From IMG/VR virus record IMGVR_UViG_2663762886_000011: a stretch of 57,853 bases of DNA; one strand, 5' to 3'. This document shows positions 1 through 18,122 of the stretch, piece after piece; the first letter of the stretch is position 1; the number at the start of each line of letters is the position of its first letter. The translations under genes were made by a program, and so were the position numbers. The notes below the pieces were generated by a model. The model ran no database searches, had not been told where the DNA came from, and was given only the letters and a program-made list of their open reading frames with translations. Source of the DNA: a virus (lineage: Duplodnaviria > Heunggongvirae > Uroviricota > Caudoviricetes).

Positions 1-1236
1 CTACGATAACCGCGCATTCAACATGGCTACCTGTTCGTCGTTCATGTCATCAATCCACATACCGTAAATTTCATACACCATCTGCGCAGTTTCATGCCCC
101 ATCTGGCTGGCTATAAACGCCGGGTTCGCTCCTGCCGTCAACAGCCAGCAGGCAAAAGTATGCCGCGTATGGTACGGATTACGGCGGCGAATACCAGCAC
201 GTTTTACTGCTGCATTCCATCTCGCACCCAAACTGCTTACCGAGTAATAAGGTTTCTGTTTTCCGTTACACACTCTGGGCATGAAAACAAAATGCAGTTT
301 TTGCTTTTCGGTTCTGCCGTACTCCCGATGATAAAAAGTGATTTCGCTTTTGCGATGATGCCCGGTCAGTTTGTATTGCTCCTTCAGTGCTTCAAGAGCA
401 GGCTGCAGTAGTGTTACCGTCCGGATCCCCGCATTTGTTTTTGGGGGACCGAACATATCCAGTATCGTCAGGTTTCTTCTGACATTCACAACTCCCTTCT
501 CGAAATCCACATCCTCCCACGCCAGAGCAGCCAGTTCCCCGTGACGAAGCCCGGAGTATACGGCAAATTTCCACAAGTTCTGGCTCTGTCCTTTTTCACT
601 TTCCATTAATGCATTGAATTCTGTTTTAGATAACGGGTCAGGCTTTATTCTGTTTCTCTGTAATTTCTTTACTCCTTCAAATGGTTTGGTTGATATAAAT
701 CCCGACTGATACGCAAAACGTAACAACGAACAGAGCAGGGCGATATAGTTATCAACTGTGCGCACGGTTCTTCCTTTTTTGTTGGATCTTGGATTATCCA
801 GGTAAAGCGTTTCTCCATGCAGCAGTTCATTCCGGTAGTTTAAGATATCGCTATAACGAATATGCGATATCGGAGTACTCTCACAAATTATTATCCTGAG
901 TGTTTTTAATTGTGATTTCGTTTTCTTCATTGTGTTTGTTGTTAACTCTGTTTCTTTAATTTTTGTCCAGATATCACAAAGCTCCCCGAACGTTTTTATG
1001 ACCCTCGTTGTCACCATTTTTGCCCCAGTGCTGGACTGGGGAAAACGTCTTAAATACTCAAACTCACCGGAATTGATTTCATGAACTATCAACGCTCTTA
1101 AATTCCCGGCTTTTTTAATGTTACTGTTAGTAACCTCCCAGCCTTTCAATGTTTCCCGACATCGTTTTCCTCGAAACATGAACCAGATGCGAATGTATTT
1201 ACCTCGAATCTCGACACCTGTTGGTAATTTAGACAT
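1..1236 (-). CDS. intR: Prophage integrase, tyrosine recombinase, 411 aa
   Basis: Complete minus-strand ORF whose stop abuts the window edge; translation matches Rac-type integrase as I recall it; excisionase gene lies immediately upstream as in lambdoid int-xis modules. Confidence 0.9.
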   Translation of the reverse strand: MSKLPTGVEIRGKYIRIWFMFRGKRCRETLKGWEVTNSNIKKAGNLRALIVHEINSGEFEYLRRFPQSSTGAKMVTTRVIKTFGELCDIWTKIKETELTTNTMKKTKSQLKTLRIIICESTPISHIRYSDILNYRNELLHGETLYLDNPRSNKKGRTVRTVDNYIALLCSLLRFAYQSGFISTKPFEGVKKLQRNRIKPDPLSKTEFNALMESEKGQSQNLWKFAVYSGLRHGELAALAWEDVDFEKGVVNVRRNLTILDMFGPPKTNAGIRTVTLLQPALEALKEQYKLTGHHRKSEITFYHREYGRTEKQKLHFVFMPRVCNGKQKPYYSVSSLGARWNAAVKRAGIRRRNPYHTRHTFACWLLTAGANPAFIASQMGHETAQMVYEIYGMWIDDMNDEQVAMLNARLS

Positions 1237-1552: not shown

Positions 1553-1741
1553 TCACGAGGACTGAAGTTTCTCGCAATTAAAATTTATCAGTTTTACTTT
1601 CTGCTCTCTGGAAACGCCTGCTTCTTTTTTACCTGAGAGCATTTTTTCGCATTCTGATTTCGTTAGTTTAGATTTTGAATATCTTGTCCAGTTAGTAGGA
1701 GTGCCACCTTCCTTTTCAATAGTGGCGGTAATTTTATACAT
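1553..1741 (-). CDS. Small Rac early-left protein, YdaC-like
   Basis: Track ORF 1553-1813; start placed at internal ATG (MYKITATIEKEGG...) that overlaps the ralR stop; upstream extension of the track ORF is the ralR 3' region read in another frame. Confidence 0.5.
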   Translation of the reverse strand: MYKITATIEKEGGTPTNWTRYSKSKLTKSECEKMLSGKKEAGVSREQKVKLINFNCEKLQSS

Positions 1742-11758: not shown

Positions 11759-11896
11759 ACGTTACTAGATCAAAGAGCATTAGTTCATATGTAAATTGAC
11801 ATTTTTCTGGCACAGGGGAGAGCTAGCGTGGTTGTCCGCTTTGTGCCAATAGCGGACATTGCTGGCTCATGGTATGTTAGTTTAAGGAGGCAGGTT

Positions 11897-12919
11897 ATGC
11901 CCTGTATTTCGCTGTGGTATAATAGTTGCGCAATTGATACAAGGGAGCGTTACATCGTGAAAATTGTTTTCGAGGTTAATGGAAAGAAAGTTCCACTAAA
12001 ATCTTTAAAATACATAAGCAAAAAAGATCAACTCGAAGTAATGAAAAACTGGTTCTTTGAAAACTTTGAAGATCCGGCAAATGCTTGTCCGTATGAAAGT
12101 AGAGAAGGTGGCTATGCTTACATATATGGCGGGCCGTATGATGCGAGCGAAGAACTACAATCCATCTTCGGTCAATATGTTAAATCTGAGTATATTGAGG
12201 AATTAGTAGATGAATTACAAACACAATGTTTTGACTGGTCTGGAAACTCAAATAATATAGATGATTGGTACGATGATGATATCTACGACGCTGTAACGTC
12301 TTCCGGTAATCCGTATTTAAAATTCATTGATAATATCGATAAAATAAAAAAACTTGCAAAAGATAAAACTGAACAACAGCAAAAAAACCACTTGCTTAGT
12401 TTGCTCTACACGAATGTTATTACAGCTTTGGAAACGCTTTATGTTGAGCTATTCATTAATTCTATAGAGAAAGATGATGTCTACATAGCCAATTGTATAG
12501 AAAAAGGTAAGACTGAATTTAAAGTAAGCAAAGATATTGCTGCGTTGCCTTTCAAGGGTGAACCCATCGAGAAAATTAGGGGAGAGCTAATCAGGTCAAT
12601 CAAGGAACACTTGATCAGTGCAAGCTGGCATAGCACTAAAAAGGTAATCGACCGCTATGAAGCTACATTCGATATAAAAGTACAAAAAGACTGTCCGATA
12701 GAAGCTATTGAATTGGCAACCCTCAATCGAAATCACTTAGTGCATCGTGGTGGAAAGGATAAAGAAGGGAACCTCGTAGTGATTACAGACCAGGATCTTG
12801 AAACGCTGATTGAAAATGCATCGAACCTGGCAATTATGCTCTACAACAGTTTAAATGTAGCAACGAATAAAACCACCATTTTGCAACCAGATGACAAACC
12901 GTTCATTCATGAATTTTAA
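11897..12919 (+). CDS. Candidate defence protein A with HEPN-like Rx4H motif, about 340 aa
   Basis: AT-rich ORF; SD TAAGGAGG 6 nt before ATG 11897 (alternative GTG 11957 preceded by AAGGGAG); C-terminal LNRNHLVHRG matches HEPN R-x(4-6)-H. Confidence 0.6.
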   Translation: MPCISLWYNSCAIDTRERYIVKIVFEVNGKKVPLKSLKYISKKDQLEVMKNWFFENFEDPANACPYESREGGYAYIYGGPYDASEELQSIFGQYVKSEYIEELVDELQTQCFDWSGNSNNIDDWYDDDIYDAVTSSGNPYLKFIDNIDKIKKLAKDKTEQQQKNHLLSLLYTNVITALETLYVELFINSIEKDDVYIANCIEKGKTEFKVSKDIAALPFKGEPIEKIRGELIRSIKEHLISASWHSTKKVIDRYEATFDIKVQKDCPIEAIELATLNRNHLVHRGGKDKEGNLVVITDQDLETLIENASNLAIMLYNSLNVATNKTTILQPDDKPFIHEF

Positions 12920-12934
12920 TAGCGCAGGTCATAC

Positions 12935-13936
12935 ATGGATATTCGCACACGAAAGACAAAATTTTTAGAGTCGTTAGATTCAACTGAAGTGATACGCAAA
13001 GCAGTAAGTCTCGCTATAGATTGCATTATTGATAATCATAATAGTAATGAAGATACCCCCTTAGTTATTACCAGCTATGATGATCTCTGTAGAATCCAGG
13101 TGCTAAATTATGTACAGGAGTTTTGCGAAGCTGCATTCCCTGATATGGATGAATATTACTTTAGTCCTAACATACTTCGCATCAACGGCAAGACTAGTGA
13201 AGAAGCTTGTATTAACTTAATTAAACTCTTAAGAAGTACAAAAGGCATGCTATTCTGGTCCGATGCCCCATCGTGGTTCGCTAGCCTCCCCGACGGATTA
13301 TTCCATGTTGTTAACATTGATCAAAAAATCGTTACTCGCGGCCTTAATAAGAAAAACTCTAAGCCGACAATAATCAATAAAGATTACAGTGTAGATACAC
13401 TACTATCAGAGCTATTTTTGAATGGCGCACACATGGAGCAACCCAACGTACACAACGTTTCTGAGGGAAACATGAAGTTCTATGATGAATGCCATGCTGG
13501 ATTAATCAGACCAATACCCGCTCCAATAGGCGCGTCATACGATGAAGAGATCACAATTAATTCTCCAGATTGGCAAAAGCTCGCGTGTGTAGCTTTACGC
13601 CGCTATCAGTCGAAGGAATGTCATGACGGAATGCAATGGGATACAACCGATCATGGTTGGACTGATGTAATCGCGTATCCATTCGTCGAAGAAATACAAT
13701 CAATGGATAATAGTGGTTATCGACAATGTTTAGTTGGGCTGGTCACAATAAACAATTCAAATGCAAATTCTCCGTACCTATCTACCGTTTGGATACATCC
13801 ATTTTATCGCAGGAGAGGGTTATTAAGTAAGTTATGGCCAAAATTACAAGAGTTATATGGAAGTAACTTCGAAATTGAGCGACCTAATGAAAATATGAAA
13901 GCATTTCTGAAAAGTGCGAAACACGCAGATTACTAA
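12935..13936 (+). CDS. Candidate defence protein B with GNAT-like C-terminal motif, 333 aa
   Basis: AT-rich ORF 15 nt downstream of protein A; C-terminus STVWIHPFYRRRGLLSKLWPKL resembles GNAT motif A. Confidence 0.6.
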   Translation: MDIRTRKTKFLESLDSTEVIRKAVSLAIDCIIDNHNSNEDTPLVITSYDDLCRIQVLNYVQEFCEAAFPDMDEYYFSPNILRINGKTSEEACINLIKLLRSTKGMLFWSDAPSWFASLPDGLFHVVNIDQKIVTRGLNKKNSKPTIINKDYSVDTLLSELFLNGAHMEQPNVHNVSEGNMKFYDECHAGLIRPIPAPIGASYDEEITINSPDWQKLACVALRRYQSKECHDGMQWDTTDHGWTDVIAYPFVEEIQSMDNSGYRQCLVGLVTINNSNANSPYLSTVWIHPFYRRRGLLSKLWPKLQELYGSNFEIERPNENMKAFLKSAKHADY

Positions 13937-14496
13937 TTTATGAATCAGTCTGTGGAGTTAGGGTTGGTGTGAACAAGTAGGGTAAGAGCCTCAACGTGAT
14001 GCTATGCCGACCTGCTCCCTGAGAATTCACACAGAAGGCTGCTAGCAATGTCTGCAGATCGCTCAAAGCGGACTAAAATGTTGGCTTGTTTCTGACTTAG
14101 AGCATTTAAGGAAGTGCTGGTGGTGACTGGTTGTTGTGTTCCATTTCTACAGAATAAAATCACAGAAACTATACCCAATAGTTGTATTGAATCACTGACG
14201 AGACAGCCTCATATTTATCAGGACTGGTGTGCGTCTAATACAGGGGGTTGTCGTGCTGGTTCTCAAATGTGCGCTGGCTATTGCGGCTGTAATGGCAATT
14301 TATTGTCTTGCTGTTGTTCTTATGGAGCGGCTTTCTGATTGATTACATACTGGCTAGAAAAAAGGTGTTACCTTGGTTTATCTTTGTCCGGCAAGGTGCG
14401 CTCATTAATCTTAAGTAAATTTATTGCTCAAGTATTCAGATTACTTCTTATGGTTGAAGTCTCCTGTCAATGTAGAACCAATATATTTACAAAAAT

Positions 14497-14530
14497 GAGA
14501 CCCGTCGGGGATAGCCCTGCCGGGTCTGAC
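14497..14530 (-). terminator. Intrinsic terminator downstream of yeaR-like gene
   Basis: Inverted repeat AGACCCG...CGGGTCT followed by T-run on the minus strand. Confidence 0.5.
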
Positions 14531-14556
14531 TGTTAAAGCATTTTTAATATGATCAT

Positions 14557-14895
14557 CTATTTTTTGGTGCTATAGACTTTTTCGCCCGAAAAGTCTGGAG
14601 CGACCCAAAAGTTAATATTAAACTGAGCATCATCGCTTAGTTCAACACGGTGCCAGTATTGTGGTGGGCTTGTTGCAAAAGCGCCAGCATTAATGACTAC
14701 TTTTATCTCCGGTTCAGTAGCATTCTCATCAGTAAAACCATAATATGTTACAGTGCCTTCCATTACGCACAACTGCCCAAAAACACCTGCTGCTGTATTA
14801 TGATGTGTTAATAACGCTGAAGGTACGTTCTCTTTTGTGAAGAACGGAGTTGAGCGTTTGATTACCCAATCTTTAGGAATTCTCTTGTGTGTCAT
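14557..14895 (-). CDS. YeaR-like DUF1971 protein, 112 aa
   Basis: Translation (RSTPFFTKENVPSA...CVMEGTVTYYGF...PPQYWHRVE...FNINFWVAPD) parallels E. coli YeaR; SD GGAGGAGGTGG before ATG 14895. Confidence 0.75.
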   Translation of the reverse strand: MTHKRIPKDWVIKRSTPFFTKENVPSALLTHHNTAAGVFGQLCVMEGTVTYYGFTDENATEPEIKVVINAGAFATSPPQYWHRVELSDDAQFNINFWVAPDFSGEKVYSTKK

Positions 14896-14910
14896 AACCA
14901 CCTCCTCCAA

Positions 14911-14933
14911 AACATGCATTAAAAATGCATCTT
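14911..14933. promoter_or_regulatory. NsrR-type operator (11-1-11 inverted repeat)
   Basis: AACATGCATTA-A-AAATGCATCTT immediately upstream of the yeaR-like SD; TTGACA on the minus strand about 20 nt further upstream. Confidence 0.5.
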
Positions 14934-15708
14934 TTGGAGGGTTATGTCAAGCTGTTATGAAACACATAATTGATATGTTGATTAGAGGAGAAGATAGAAT
15001 AAATATGGTTGTTTTTCGTATAACTATTTGTTTTACTTTTAGTTTATGCATTCTGTGTGTTAGGAATAAGTTATTAAAGTTTAATCAAAAAATCTCGATG
15101 TAGTCCACATAGATTACTGTTACTGAACCTTATTGTGTGTATTAGTTGTGTTCTGAAATTTCAGCTTAATTATTTATGATGTATTTTTTAACGATAAATA
15201 TTTTCCCAGGATACCTTTACTGTGTATATAAATAAATTATATACGCATAAATAATGTAAAGGCGTCCTTTTAGATATATCTTATCAAATGTTAATGACTT
15301 GAGTGGGAAATATGATTCCAGCAACTTATCATGTGGCTACTTTATAAAAATAATGCCCATATAAAACAACAAGCGAAAAGGATTACGGATAAAAAAGGAG
15401 CGAGATGTGCGAACTTGTTATTTTCCATGTTTAACCACCTTAAATAATTGATGATGACGGGATGATTGCATCTGTAATGCTTTTATTGAAATGTTATGAT
15501 AAAAAAGAACTTTTGCATAACATTAAAATGTAATTTATCTAATCGTTTTTAATAATAAGTGTCGTATTTCTATCCTTGTACCAGCTATTTGATATGTAGT
15601 GTTTGTTCATGCTATGTGGGGCTTTACACCATAGCCAGTTTATTTATACTTTATTCGTCAGCCTGAACAACTGGCATCTGCTGCGCTGCGCCATCGAGAG
15701 ATTGAGAA

Positions 15709-16308
15709 ATGGCGCATATACAACTGGTCAAACAAACCTCTTCTGGTTTACTTCTCCCGGCGACGCCGGAGAGTTGCGATTTTCTGCATCAAATCAAAAT
15801 AGGTGAGTGGATACACGCAGACTTTAAGCGTGTGTGTAACTACGCATTCCACAAGCGTTTTTTCAAACTCCTGCAACTGGGTTTCGATTACTGGACTCCG
15901 GTCGGTGGGGCGATCACGCCTCGCGAACGAGAACTGCTGTCTGGTTTCGTTGATTACCTGTGCGAATCAGTTGGTCGGGAACACACGCCAGCCCTGAGTG
16001 ATGCCGCAGAGCAATACCTTAACACCGTTGCGACTCGTAGAACCCGGGATACGGCGTTGCTAAAGTCGTTTGAGGCTTTCCGCGAGTGGGTAACCATTCA
16101 GGCCGGATTTTACACCGAGCATATTTATCCGGACGGTAGCCGTGGGCGTCGGGCAAAATCCATCGCTTTTGCGAATATGGACGAAGTCGAGTTTCAGCAG
16201 GTTTATAAATCTGTACTGAATGTGCTGTGGAACTGGATTCTGTTCCGTAAATTCTCCTCTCAGGAGGAAGTTGAAAATGTGGCCGCACAACTACTGGAGT
16301 TTGCGTAA
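15709..16308 (+). CDS. Conserved lambdoid nin-region protein, 199 aa
   Basis: ORF upstream of DUF1364-like gene and Q-like gene; family assignment uncertain. Confidence 0.5.
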   Translation: MAHIQLVKQTSSGLLLPATPESCDFLHQIKIGEWIHADFKRVCNYAFHKRFFKLLQLGFDYWTPVGGAITPRERELLSGFVDYLCESVGREHTPALSDAAEQYLNTVATRRTRDTALLKSFEAFREWVTIQAGFYTEHIYPDGSRGRRAKSIAFANMDEVEFQQVYKSVLNVLWNWILFRKFSSQEEVENVAAQLLEFA

Positions 16309-17595: not shown

Positions 17596-18122
17596 GGTTT
17601 ATTGTATGCCAAATGATTATTAAAAAGGTTGTGTTAATAACAAGATCCGAAATAATATGCCTGCATATTTTTATCTTGCTTATATTCTGCATATTGTGCA
17701 TAGCAGGCTCATCCCTGCAATCAAAACTGTATGATGAGTATTTTTTGTTTTCCTTTTTTCCAGTCATCTGATGATGACCTGCTTCTTTTTAATCCGGATC
17801 GACATCAGTTTTTTAAGATAATTCCTGCGAGTTATATGCATAAATGCCACAAACTCCGCATTTTATGTGGTTGGGAGTTGCCGGGCGCGCAGTGAGTTTG
17901 CTAAGAAAACTCCTGCATGGTGAATCCCCCTGTGCGGTGGGGTGATACCATTAACCTTTTCTGTCGCCGACAGGTATCACGAACATTTTGTTCACCGGGA
18001 GGCACCCGGCACCATGCACTTCAATAGATTCTCTCCACATTATGGATATTCTTTCAGAATATCCCACGCAGACTTTGTGTAAATGTTAACAAATGTGCGT
18101 TTTATTTGATCTGATTCGCTGT

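Follow-up and report, generated by a model that had tools for sequence, protein, structure and literature searches.

A Rac-like prophage carries an STM1808-type DUF1971 gene behind a predicted NsrR operator

Does a small gene on the minus strand of a prophage answer to the nitric oxide (NO) sensor of its host, and did its control region travel with it? The question arises in a virus record of 57,853 nucleotides (IMG/VR IMGVR_UViG_2663762886_000011; here the window, meaning the whole stretch analysed), in which a gene for a DUF1971 protein follows directly on a sequence resembling the binding site of the repressor NsrR. Judging from sequence comparison, we think it quite likely that this is an accessory gene of a Rac-like prophage at ttcA, repressed by NsrR and induced by NO. 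The family and subfamily of the protein, the prophage context, the strength of the operator, the geometry of operator and promoter across genera, and purifying selection on the gene are established at the sequence level. The principal features are these:

14557 to 14895, minus strand: gene for a DUF1971 protein of the STM1808 type, 112 amino acids, stop codon included (Pfam, identity, structure match, and selection)
14901 to 14908, minus strand: Shine–Dalgarno sequence GGAGGAGG, a purine run of 8 nt that ends 5 nt before the ATG (direct reading)
14911 to 14933, both strands: NsrR-type operator, an 11-1-11 inverted repeat, AACATGCATTAAAAATGCATCTT on the plus strand and AAGATGCATTTTTAATGCATGTT on the minus strand (consensus match, matrix score, and orthologs)
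14922 to 14927, minus strand: probable -10 hexamer CATTTT, inside the left operator half-site and 17 nt after TTGACA (inferred)
14945 to 14950, minus strand: -35 hexamer TTGACA (direct reading; invariant in copies)
14491 to 14527, minus strand: intrinsic terminator-like hairpin and U-run downstream of the gene, stem AGACCCG/CGGGUCU and then CAUUUUU

The first step is to decide what the gene encodes. The original prediction saw a DUF1971 protein that parallels YeaR over its length, and this holds: Pfam DUF1971 (PF09313) is matched over the whole profile, positions 1-80 of 80, with an E value of 2.3e-26 and 92 bits where the gathering cutoff is 23.1, and 111 residues align with Escherichia coli K-12 YeaR at 41% identity. 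The gene had also been called a prophage-borne yeaR paralog, which is right insofar as a DUF1971 paralog of YeaR does lie in a prophage, but it is no recent duplicate of yeaR: against the 41% to YeaR stands 73-82% identity to a separate, strongly conserved DUF1971 subfamily with members of 111-114 residues in Kluyvera, Leclercia, Pantoea, Enterobacter, Citrobacter, Klebsiella, Raoultella, and Salmonella, and also in Vibrio, Aliivibrio, Photobacterium, and Shewanella. On sequence evidence the gene is a member of this STM1808-type subfamily and not a YeaR ortholog. Recent duplication of yeaR was rejected as well for want of a yoaG partner: after the stop codon comes a terminator-like hairpin, and the small minus-strand open reading frames (ORFs) downstream of the gene bear no resemblance, by eye, to the YoaG (DUF1869) encoded in locus L002.

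Identity to the Salmonella DUF1971 proteins (P0014, P0019, and L033) is about 79%, at equal length. Across the subfamily alignment (A2) mean column identity is 82%, and H32 and H82 are invariant both there and in the alignment that includes YeaR (A1). STM1808 is reportedly a zinc protein that needs His32 and His82 for zinc binding and NO resistance. A solved structure exists within the subfamily, PDB 3DL3, the "tellurite resistance protein B" of Vibrio fischeri, which matches over the full length (E 3.5e-59); the YeaR structure (PDB 3BB6) is a more distant match (E 1.6e-24), though the shared Pfam family presumably means a shared fold.

Two annotation problems should be kept in mind here. RefSeq names some copies "TehB family protein", which is misleading. 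We rejected a TehB S-adenosylmethionine (SAM)-dependent methyltransferase, as the score with the NCBIfam TehB model is 49 bits, below its cutoff of 303, and the match is limited to model positions 11-106 of 289, the N-terminal third; true TehB (N-terminal domain PDB 3M70) has the methyltransferase domain, whereas the window protein lacks it. The second problem is the start codon. An alternative ORF of 120 amino acids opens at an ATG at 14919, but it begins within the operator and has no Shine–Dalgarno sequence, the N-termini of the family line up at M-[S/T]-H, and in a strain that is identical across a 701-nt query the RefSeq gene measures 339 bp; the true start is therefore 14895, giving a 112-residue ORF (minus strand, 14895 to 14557) with the N-terminus MTHKRIP. 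The versions of 120-121 amino acids in public protein sets seem to start at this operator-internal ATG (ATGCAT core) and very likely represent a mis-called start.

The operator is the main argument for control by NsrR. The original prediction placed an 11-1-11 inverted repeat of the NsrR pattern at 14911-14933, and the repeat lies at exactly that position. It differs from the consensus AAGATGCATTTNAAATGCATCTT (AAGATGCATTT-N-AAATGCATCTT) by 2 mismatches and is the sole match with 3 or fewer mismatches in the window, where 100 shuffles gave none. The symmetrised weight matrix used for scoring derives from 26 distinct 11-1-11 sites, those listed in Table 4 of a chromatin immunoprecipitation sequencing (ChIP-seq) study of strain CFT073 (PMC5320621). 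By this matrix the operator reaches 27.8 bits, compared with 31.3 for ytfE, 25.8 for hcp, and 23.9 for yeaR, so that ytfE alone among the published CFT073 sites outscores it; the second-best position in the 57.8-kb window has 13.8 bits.

The ytfE promoter is also the closest known parallel in layout. Its operator is nearly identical (AAGATGCATTTAAAATGCATCTT in CFT073), differing from that of the window in the spacer, in one inner position, and in one position where G is common among the listed sites, and its -35 is likewise followed after 11 nt by the operator, whose left half-site holds the -10 CATTTA. The K-12 ytfE promoter, TTATAG-17-CATTTA, thus has the same geometry as TTGACA-17-CATTTT. 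The two differ in that the ytfE gene is unrelated (it encodes a di-iron repair protein), its -35 is poor (TTATAG), and its palindrome is confined to 23 bp.

The perfect TTGACA upstream of the operator had been noticed before, but placed about 20 nt from it; the hexamer is there on the minus strand, at a distance of 11 nt from the operator edge. With 17 nt between TTGACA and CATTTT, the latter is probably the -10, overlapped by the operator. All 34 E. coli-type viral-contig copies keep TTGACA unchanged, as does the Shigella locus.

The 250 nt before each ortholog were scanned with the NsrR matrix in 80 species-representative loci. Among the Enterobacterales, 51 of 52 loci have a site of 20.7-30.4 bits that ends 15-27 nt before the ATG (the highest scores elsewhere in the same 8-kb loci are 4-14 bits), and the single exception resembles a one-base deletion in the site. 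Outside the order such a site occurs in 2 of 28 loci, both Photobacterium. The upstream regions themselves align, in the order -35-like hexamer, 11-12 nt, operator, the hexamer reading TTTACA (Kluyvera clade), TTGACG (Klebsiella), TTGCCT (Citrobacter), or, in the prophage copy, TTGACA. This conserved layout puts a -10 of the form (C/T)AT(T/A)TT at operator positions 7-12, giving ortholog promoters such as TTTACA-17-TATTTT and TTGACG-17-CATATT, and GGAGG or AGGAG is found at the equivalent Shine–Dalgarno position. The suggestion that the gene arrived with its control is thus borne out: because 51 of 52 Enterobacterales species carry the homologous promoter and operator at the equivalent place, the same distance from the ATG, the sequences support well that promoter, operator, and gene were captured together by the phage.

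The settings of these orthologs are ordinary chromosomal ones. In Kluyvera the gene is located among sugar-metabolism and fimbrial genes, and in Salmonella enterica subsp. diarizonae (L033) it comes directly after fadR-nhaB-dsbB, with an operator of 20.7 bits. We take the latter to be STM1808, from the gene order and from the LT2 locus numbering, which puts STM1808 after dsbB. Like the window gene, it has its NsrR-type operator directly upstream, overlapping the predicted -10. It differs in being chromosomal; the window gene is AT-rich and part of a Rac-like prophage, and it has the consensus -35 TTGACA and the higher operator score (27.8 against 20.7 bits).

The original prediction argued from the chromosomal yeaR promoter, a known NsrR target. 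The yeaR promoter region does have an NsrR site (AAATGGTATTTAAAATGCAAATT), but since the gene belongs to the STM1808-type subfamily and not to yeaR, the argument is an analogy only. The yeaR operator is weaker (23.9 bits), the window gene lacks the yoaG of yeaR-yoaG, and yeaR is described in the literature as NarL-activated, whereas at the window promoter the -35 is the consensus and an activator site is not evident. The direct precedents are two. The "tehB homolog" was predicted in 2005 (Rodionov et al.) to belong to the NsrR regulon of enterobacteria and Photobacterium (PMC1274295), and STM1808 is listed among the genes of the NsrR regulon and credited with a part in virulence (PMC7527575, citing Karlinsey et al. 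2012, Mol Microbiol 85:1179). In the Vibrionaceae, by contrast, most orthologs have no upstream NsrR site.

Other inputs should nevertheless be considered. A Fur-box-like 19-mer with 13-17 of 19 matches to GATAATGATAATCATTATC is seen before the orthologs of Kluyvera, Leclercia, Pantoea, Enterobacter, Buttiauxella, and Silvania (L004-L025), at -83 to -85 from the ATG (the stretch from about -85 to -65) and just 5' of the -35 (e.g., L004 3916-3934), which suggests dual control by Fur and NsrR in this clade. The box is lost from the prophage copy, where the best match to a Fur box is 11/19, a background level. Near the -35, nothing convincing was seen by eye for FNR or NarL; no formal search for these was made. 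In Neptunomonas and Parendozoicomonas (L067, L070, and L077) no NsrR site lies directly 5' of the ortholog, and paired sites of 18-24 bits occur 0.7-1.1 kb away, which suggests an NO-related neighbourhood.

Might the palindrome then be read by a different regulator, another Rrf2-family protein or a phage-encoded repressor, in response to a signal other than NO? Sites of the Rrf2 family can look alike, the binding of NsrR here is a prediction, and the Fur-like box of the Kluyvera-clade orthologs shows that other inputs exist in the gene family. Yet the site nearly equals that of ytfE, the top-ranked E. coli NsrR site, many genera keep the operator in front of their chromosomal, non-phage orthologs, and the Salmonella ortholog has been reported as NsrR-regulated; we regard a different regulator as highly improbable, and NsrR as the better candidate.

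How did the gene come to be in this window, and is it still of use there? The window is a Rac-like lambdoid prophage, and the element adjoins ttcA in two annotated genomes. A 411-amino-acid ORF at 1-1236 (minus strand) holds the position of intR, by comparison with the strain identical over the 701-nt query, and is followed by the RalA small RNA (sRNA), large ORFs positioned like recT and recE, a DUF1367/YbcO/DUF1133 (Q-like) block, and morphogenesis-sized ORFs. The DUF1971 gene is found between the replication genes and the Q-like block, on the opposite strand. GC content amounts to 41% for the gene itself and 31% for the approximately 800 nt upstream, against 48.9% for the window. This location between modules, the opposite orientation, and the atypical GC content are typical of a phage accessory gene, and the gene is most likely a prophage moron. 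One further feature is needed at this point:

14570 to 15535, minus strand: cassette conserved among Rac-like copies, comprising the gene, its promoter and operator, and some 640 nt of AT-rich sequence before them (per-column variation)

Per-column variation was taken from 36 sequences, the window and 35 loci, and their alignment fails beyond -640 and +325 relative to the ATG. Upstream, about 810 nt of non-coding DNA of 31% GC (14896-15708) lie between the DUF1971 gene and DUF1367, which is divergent to it; of this DNA, about 640 nt are kept in all compared Rac-like copies. Downstream, the copies diverge from just before the stop codon onward, which makes this junction of the cassette a recombination boundary, and the terminator region is common to only part of them; in the Rac variant of strain elppa5 a hok/gef-family toxin gene (L120 16425-16550) follows the DUF1971 gene where the window has its terminator region.

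In E. coli the gene is confined to Rac-like prophages at ttcA and is found in 457 of 5426 complete genomes (8.4%), with all copies at least 95% identical, and a sensitive blastn search of the same 5426 genomes returned only such copies and no diverged chromosomal ortholog. Three 38-kb E. coli phage genomes deposited as complete have it too; among 50,697 phage records, these three related Rac-like phages are the only ones with a DUF1971 homolog. In IMG/VR, 36 contigs carry the gene, 34 of them with a protein 97-100% identical to that of E. coli. Synonymous sites are saturated against every sampled genus (synonymous differences per site, pS, 0.8-0.97); as this holds for all chromosomal orthologs, no recent donor can be named. 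Between prophage alleles the ratio of nonsynonymous to synonymous differences (pN/pS) is 0.09-0.16, and by this measure the gene is under purifying selection.

These numbers bear on whether the cassette is a neutral passenger in a decaying cryptic prophage, its operator a relic and its gene useless in E. coli. Many Rac copies are indeed defective, with IS2 insertions and truncated genes, and the operator region is unusually variable. On the other hand, with pN/pS at about 0.1, with 95% identity or more over at least 80% of the gene in 453 of the 457 copies, with -35, Shine–Dalgarno sequence, and start codon invariant in all copies examined, and with the gene also present in the 38-kb phage genomes, this seems to us very improbable, and we hold to a gene that is maintained.

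The variation at the operator deserves separate treatment. The region 14896-14945 is a local hot spot among near-identical Rac-like copies (L003 and L084-L117), with 17 variable columns in the 50 nt before the ATG, compared with 0-6 per 25 nt in the rest of the conserved cassette, and there are at least 6 operator alleles among the prophage copies. Allele B, for example, with an operator of 20.7 bits, has a single change from the window in the 339 gene positions but 5 within about 40 nt at the operator region. Several of the changes keep or raise symmetry, as in the series CCCTC..GAGG, CCCTC..GATG, CCATC..GATG, and this leads to a further feature:

14904 to 14940, both strands: extended inverted repeat with 17-nt arms, CCTCCAAAAGATGCATT and AATGCATGTTTTGGAGG, 94% complementary (repeat search)

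The right arm of this repeat contains the Shine–Dalgarno GGAGG. A still larger quasi-palindrome, 14893-14960, embeds the -35, the operator, the Shine–Dalgarno sequence, and the start codon, with an outer stem TCATAAC/GTTATGA.

One could propose from this that the long inverted repeat acts chiefly in RNA, an anti-Shine–Dalgarno CCUCC pairing with GGAGG and UCAUAAC pairing with GUUAUGA across the start codon, so that translation is what is controlled and recognition by NsrR is secondary or coincidental. The 17-nt arms do take in the Shine–Dalgarno sequence, an RNA begun upstream and containing both arms folds at -30.2 kcal/mol (z -6.8) with Shine–Dalgarno sequence and AUG buried, and the paired allele changes just given maintain the outer stem. 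However, the conserved geometry of -35 and -10 sets the start of transcription inside the right arm, so that the left arm would go untranscribed from this promoter, and an upstream scan gave no better minus-strand promoter. In addition, the core 23-mer is kept as a sequence and not just as pairing, and the extended palindrome of Citrobacter excludes the Shine–Dalgarno sequence. No Rfam family matches at 14000-16000. Control chiefly through RNA is very unlikely in our estimate.

The Citrobacter comparison also indicates what may lie behind the extension. In Citrobacter (L026-L051) and Yokenella (L060) the NsrR palindrome reaches about 20 nt per arm, with flanks that covary from species to species, TTT/AAA, TCT/AGA, and CCT/AGG; the extended Citrobacter pairs are GGCATTTAT/ATAAATGCC, GGCATCTAT/ATAGATGCC, and GGCACCTAT/ATAGGTGCC. 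Overall, and not for Citrobacter in particular, flank positions 12-18 are complementary in 54% of cases, compared with 23-36% when the partner is slid by 1-3 nt. With the predicted start inside the right arm, and with a Citrobacter extension that stops short of the Shine–Dalgarno sequence, we favour a mutational cause, in which a quasi-palindrome would have been symmetrised by template switching, over a designed RNA switch. It is conceivable, though rather unlikely, that such a fast-mutating quasi-palindrome, possibly through template switching, yields alleles of differing NsrR affinity and hence of differing NO thresholds in prophages that are nearly identical elsewhere, and that the hairpin keeps read-through transcripts untranslated, leaving protein to be made solely from transcripts of the NsrR-gated promoter.

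Returning to repression by NsrR, the mechanism that these comparisons point to would run as follows. In the lysogen, the [4Fe-4S] NsrR of the host would occupy the -10 and block RNA polymerase at a promoter that should otherwise be strong, since its -35 is the consensus. NO would damage the cluster and NsrR would leave the operator, whereupon a short leader with an exposed GGAGG, unstructured when folded from the predicted start, would be transcribed and translated. Transcription would end at the hairpin at 14491-14527. By analogy, the protein may then act like STM1808 in Salmonella, that is, in tolerance of nitrosative stress.

A hairpin and T-run terminator after the gene had been part of the original prediction; it is present, but beyond the interval of 14557-14960 to which that prediction referred. 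The 81-nt terminator region folds at -19.4 kcal/mol (z -2.1), and a simple terminator scan did not call the hairpin. We accept both promoter and terminator despite negative generic scans because of the direct reading, the comparison with the orthologs and ytfE, and the folding.

Several points weigh against this account and should be set beside it. NsrR binding, the start of transcription, and NO induction in E. coli are all predicted, as is the role in stress. The -10 CATTTT shares just 3 of its 6 positions with the consensus, and the TTGACA-17-CATTTT promoter went unreported in the generic scan. Operator scores of the alleles span 17.7-28.6 bits, so that repression may differ in strength by strain or be weak in some. 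The CFT073 NsrR ChIP-seq study (PMC5320621) lists no such target, the presence of the gene in CFT073 not having been checked. Within the searchable library, we found no publication describing the prophage-borne copy or any NsrR-controlled prophage accessory gene, and our search returned no ChIP or expression data for a carrier strain.

Prophage accessory genes under host regulators are known, among them the Fur-controlled stx1 and the prophage sodC. The window gene would resemble these as a lambdoid-prophage accessory gene that has a promoter and a terminator to itself and obeys a host stress regulator in place of the phage repressor; it would differ in that the predicted regulator is NsrR.

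Elsewhere in the window, two adjoining hypothetical genes lie just before the cassette, at 11828-12919 and 12935-13936 (both plus strand). The 363-amino-acid product has a sub-threshold match to a HEPN/RES N-terminal domain and the 333-amino-acid product a sub-threshold match to GNAT; PADLOC gave no match to either. Together the two could form a toxin-type or defence pair that shares this variable slot. The only Rfam matches in the window are the STnc100 sRNA at 17885-18071 (plus strand, 86.6 bits), downstream of the Q-like gene, and the RalA antitoxin sRNA at 1557-1735 (plus strand, 225 bits).

The gene is a phage-borne member of an already known NsrR-regulated family, and what is known of NsrR and of DUF1971 proteins is unchanged by it; as a phage accessory gene wired, on present evidence, into a host stress regulon, it is a tidy yet unsurprising case of modest interest. 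E. coli has no chromosomal ortholog of the STM1808-type protein, which is reported to aid growth of Salmonella under nitrosative stress and in mice, and about 8% of complete E. coli genomes gain such a gene from a Rac-like prophage, apparently pre-wired to the NO sensor of the host. If functional, it would be a clean example of a whole regulatory cassette of promoter, operator, and gene being moved by a phage into a host that already holds the matching repressor, and a "cryptic" prophage would add to NO tolerance, in gut, urinary tract, or macrophages, a component that varies from strain to strain.

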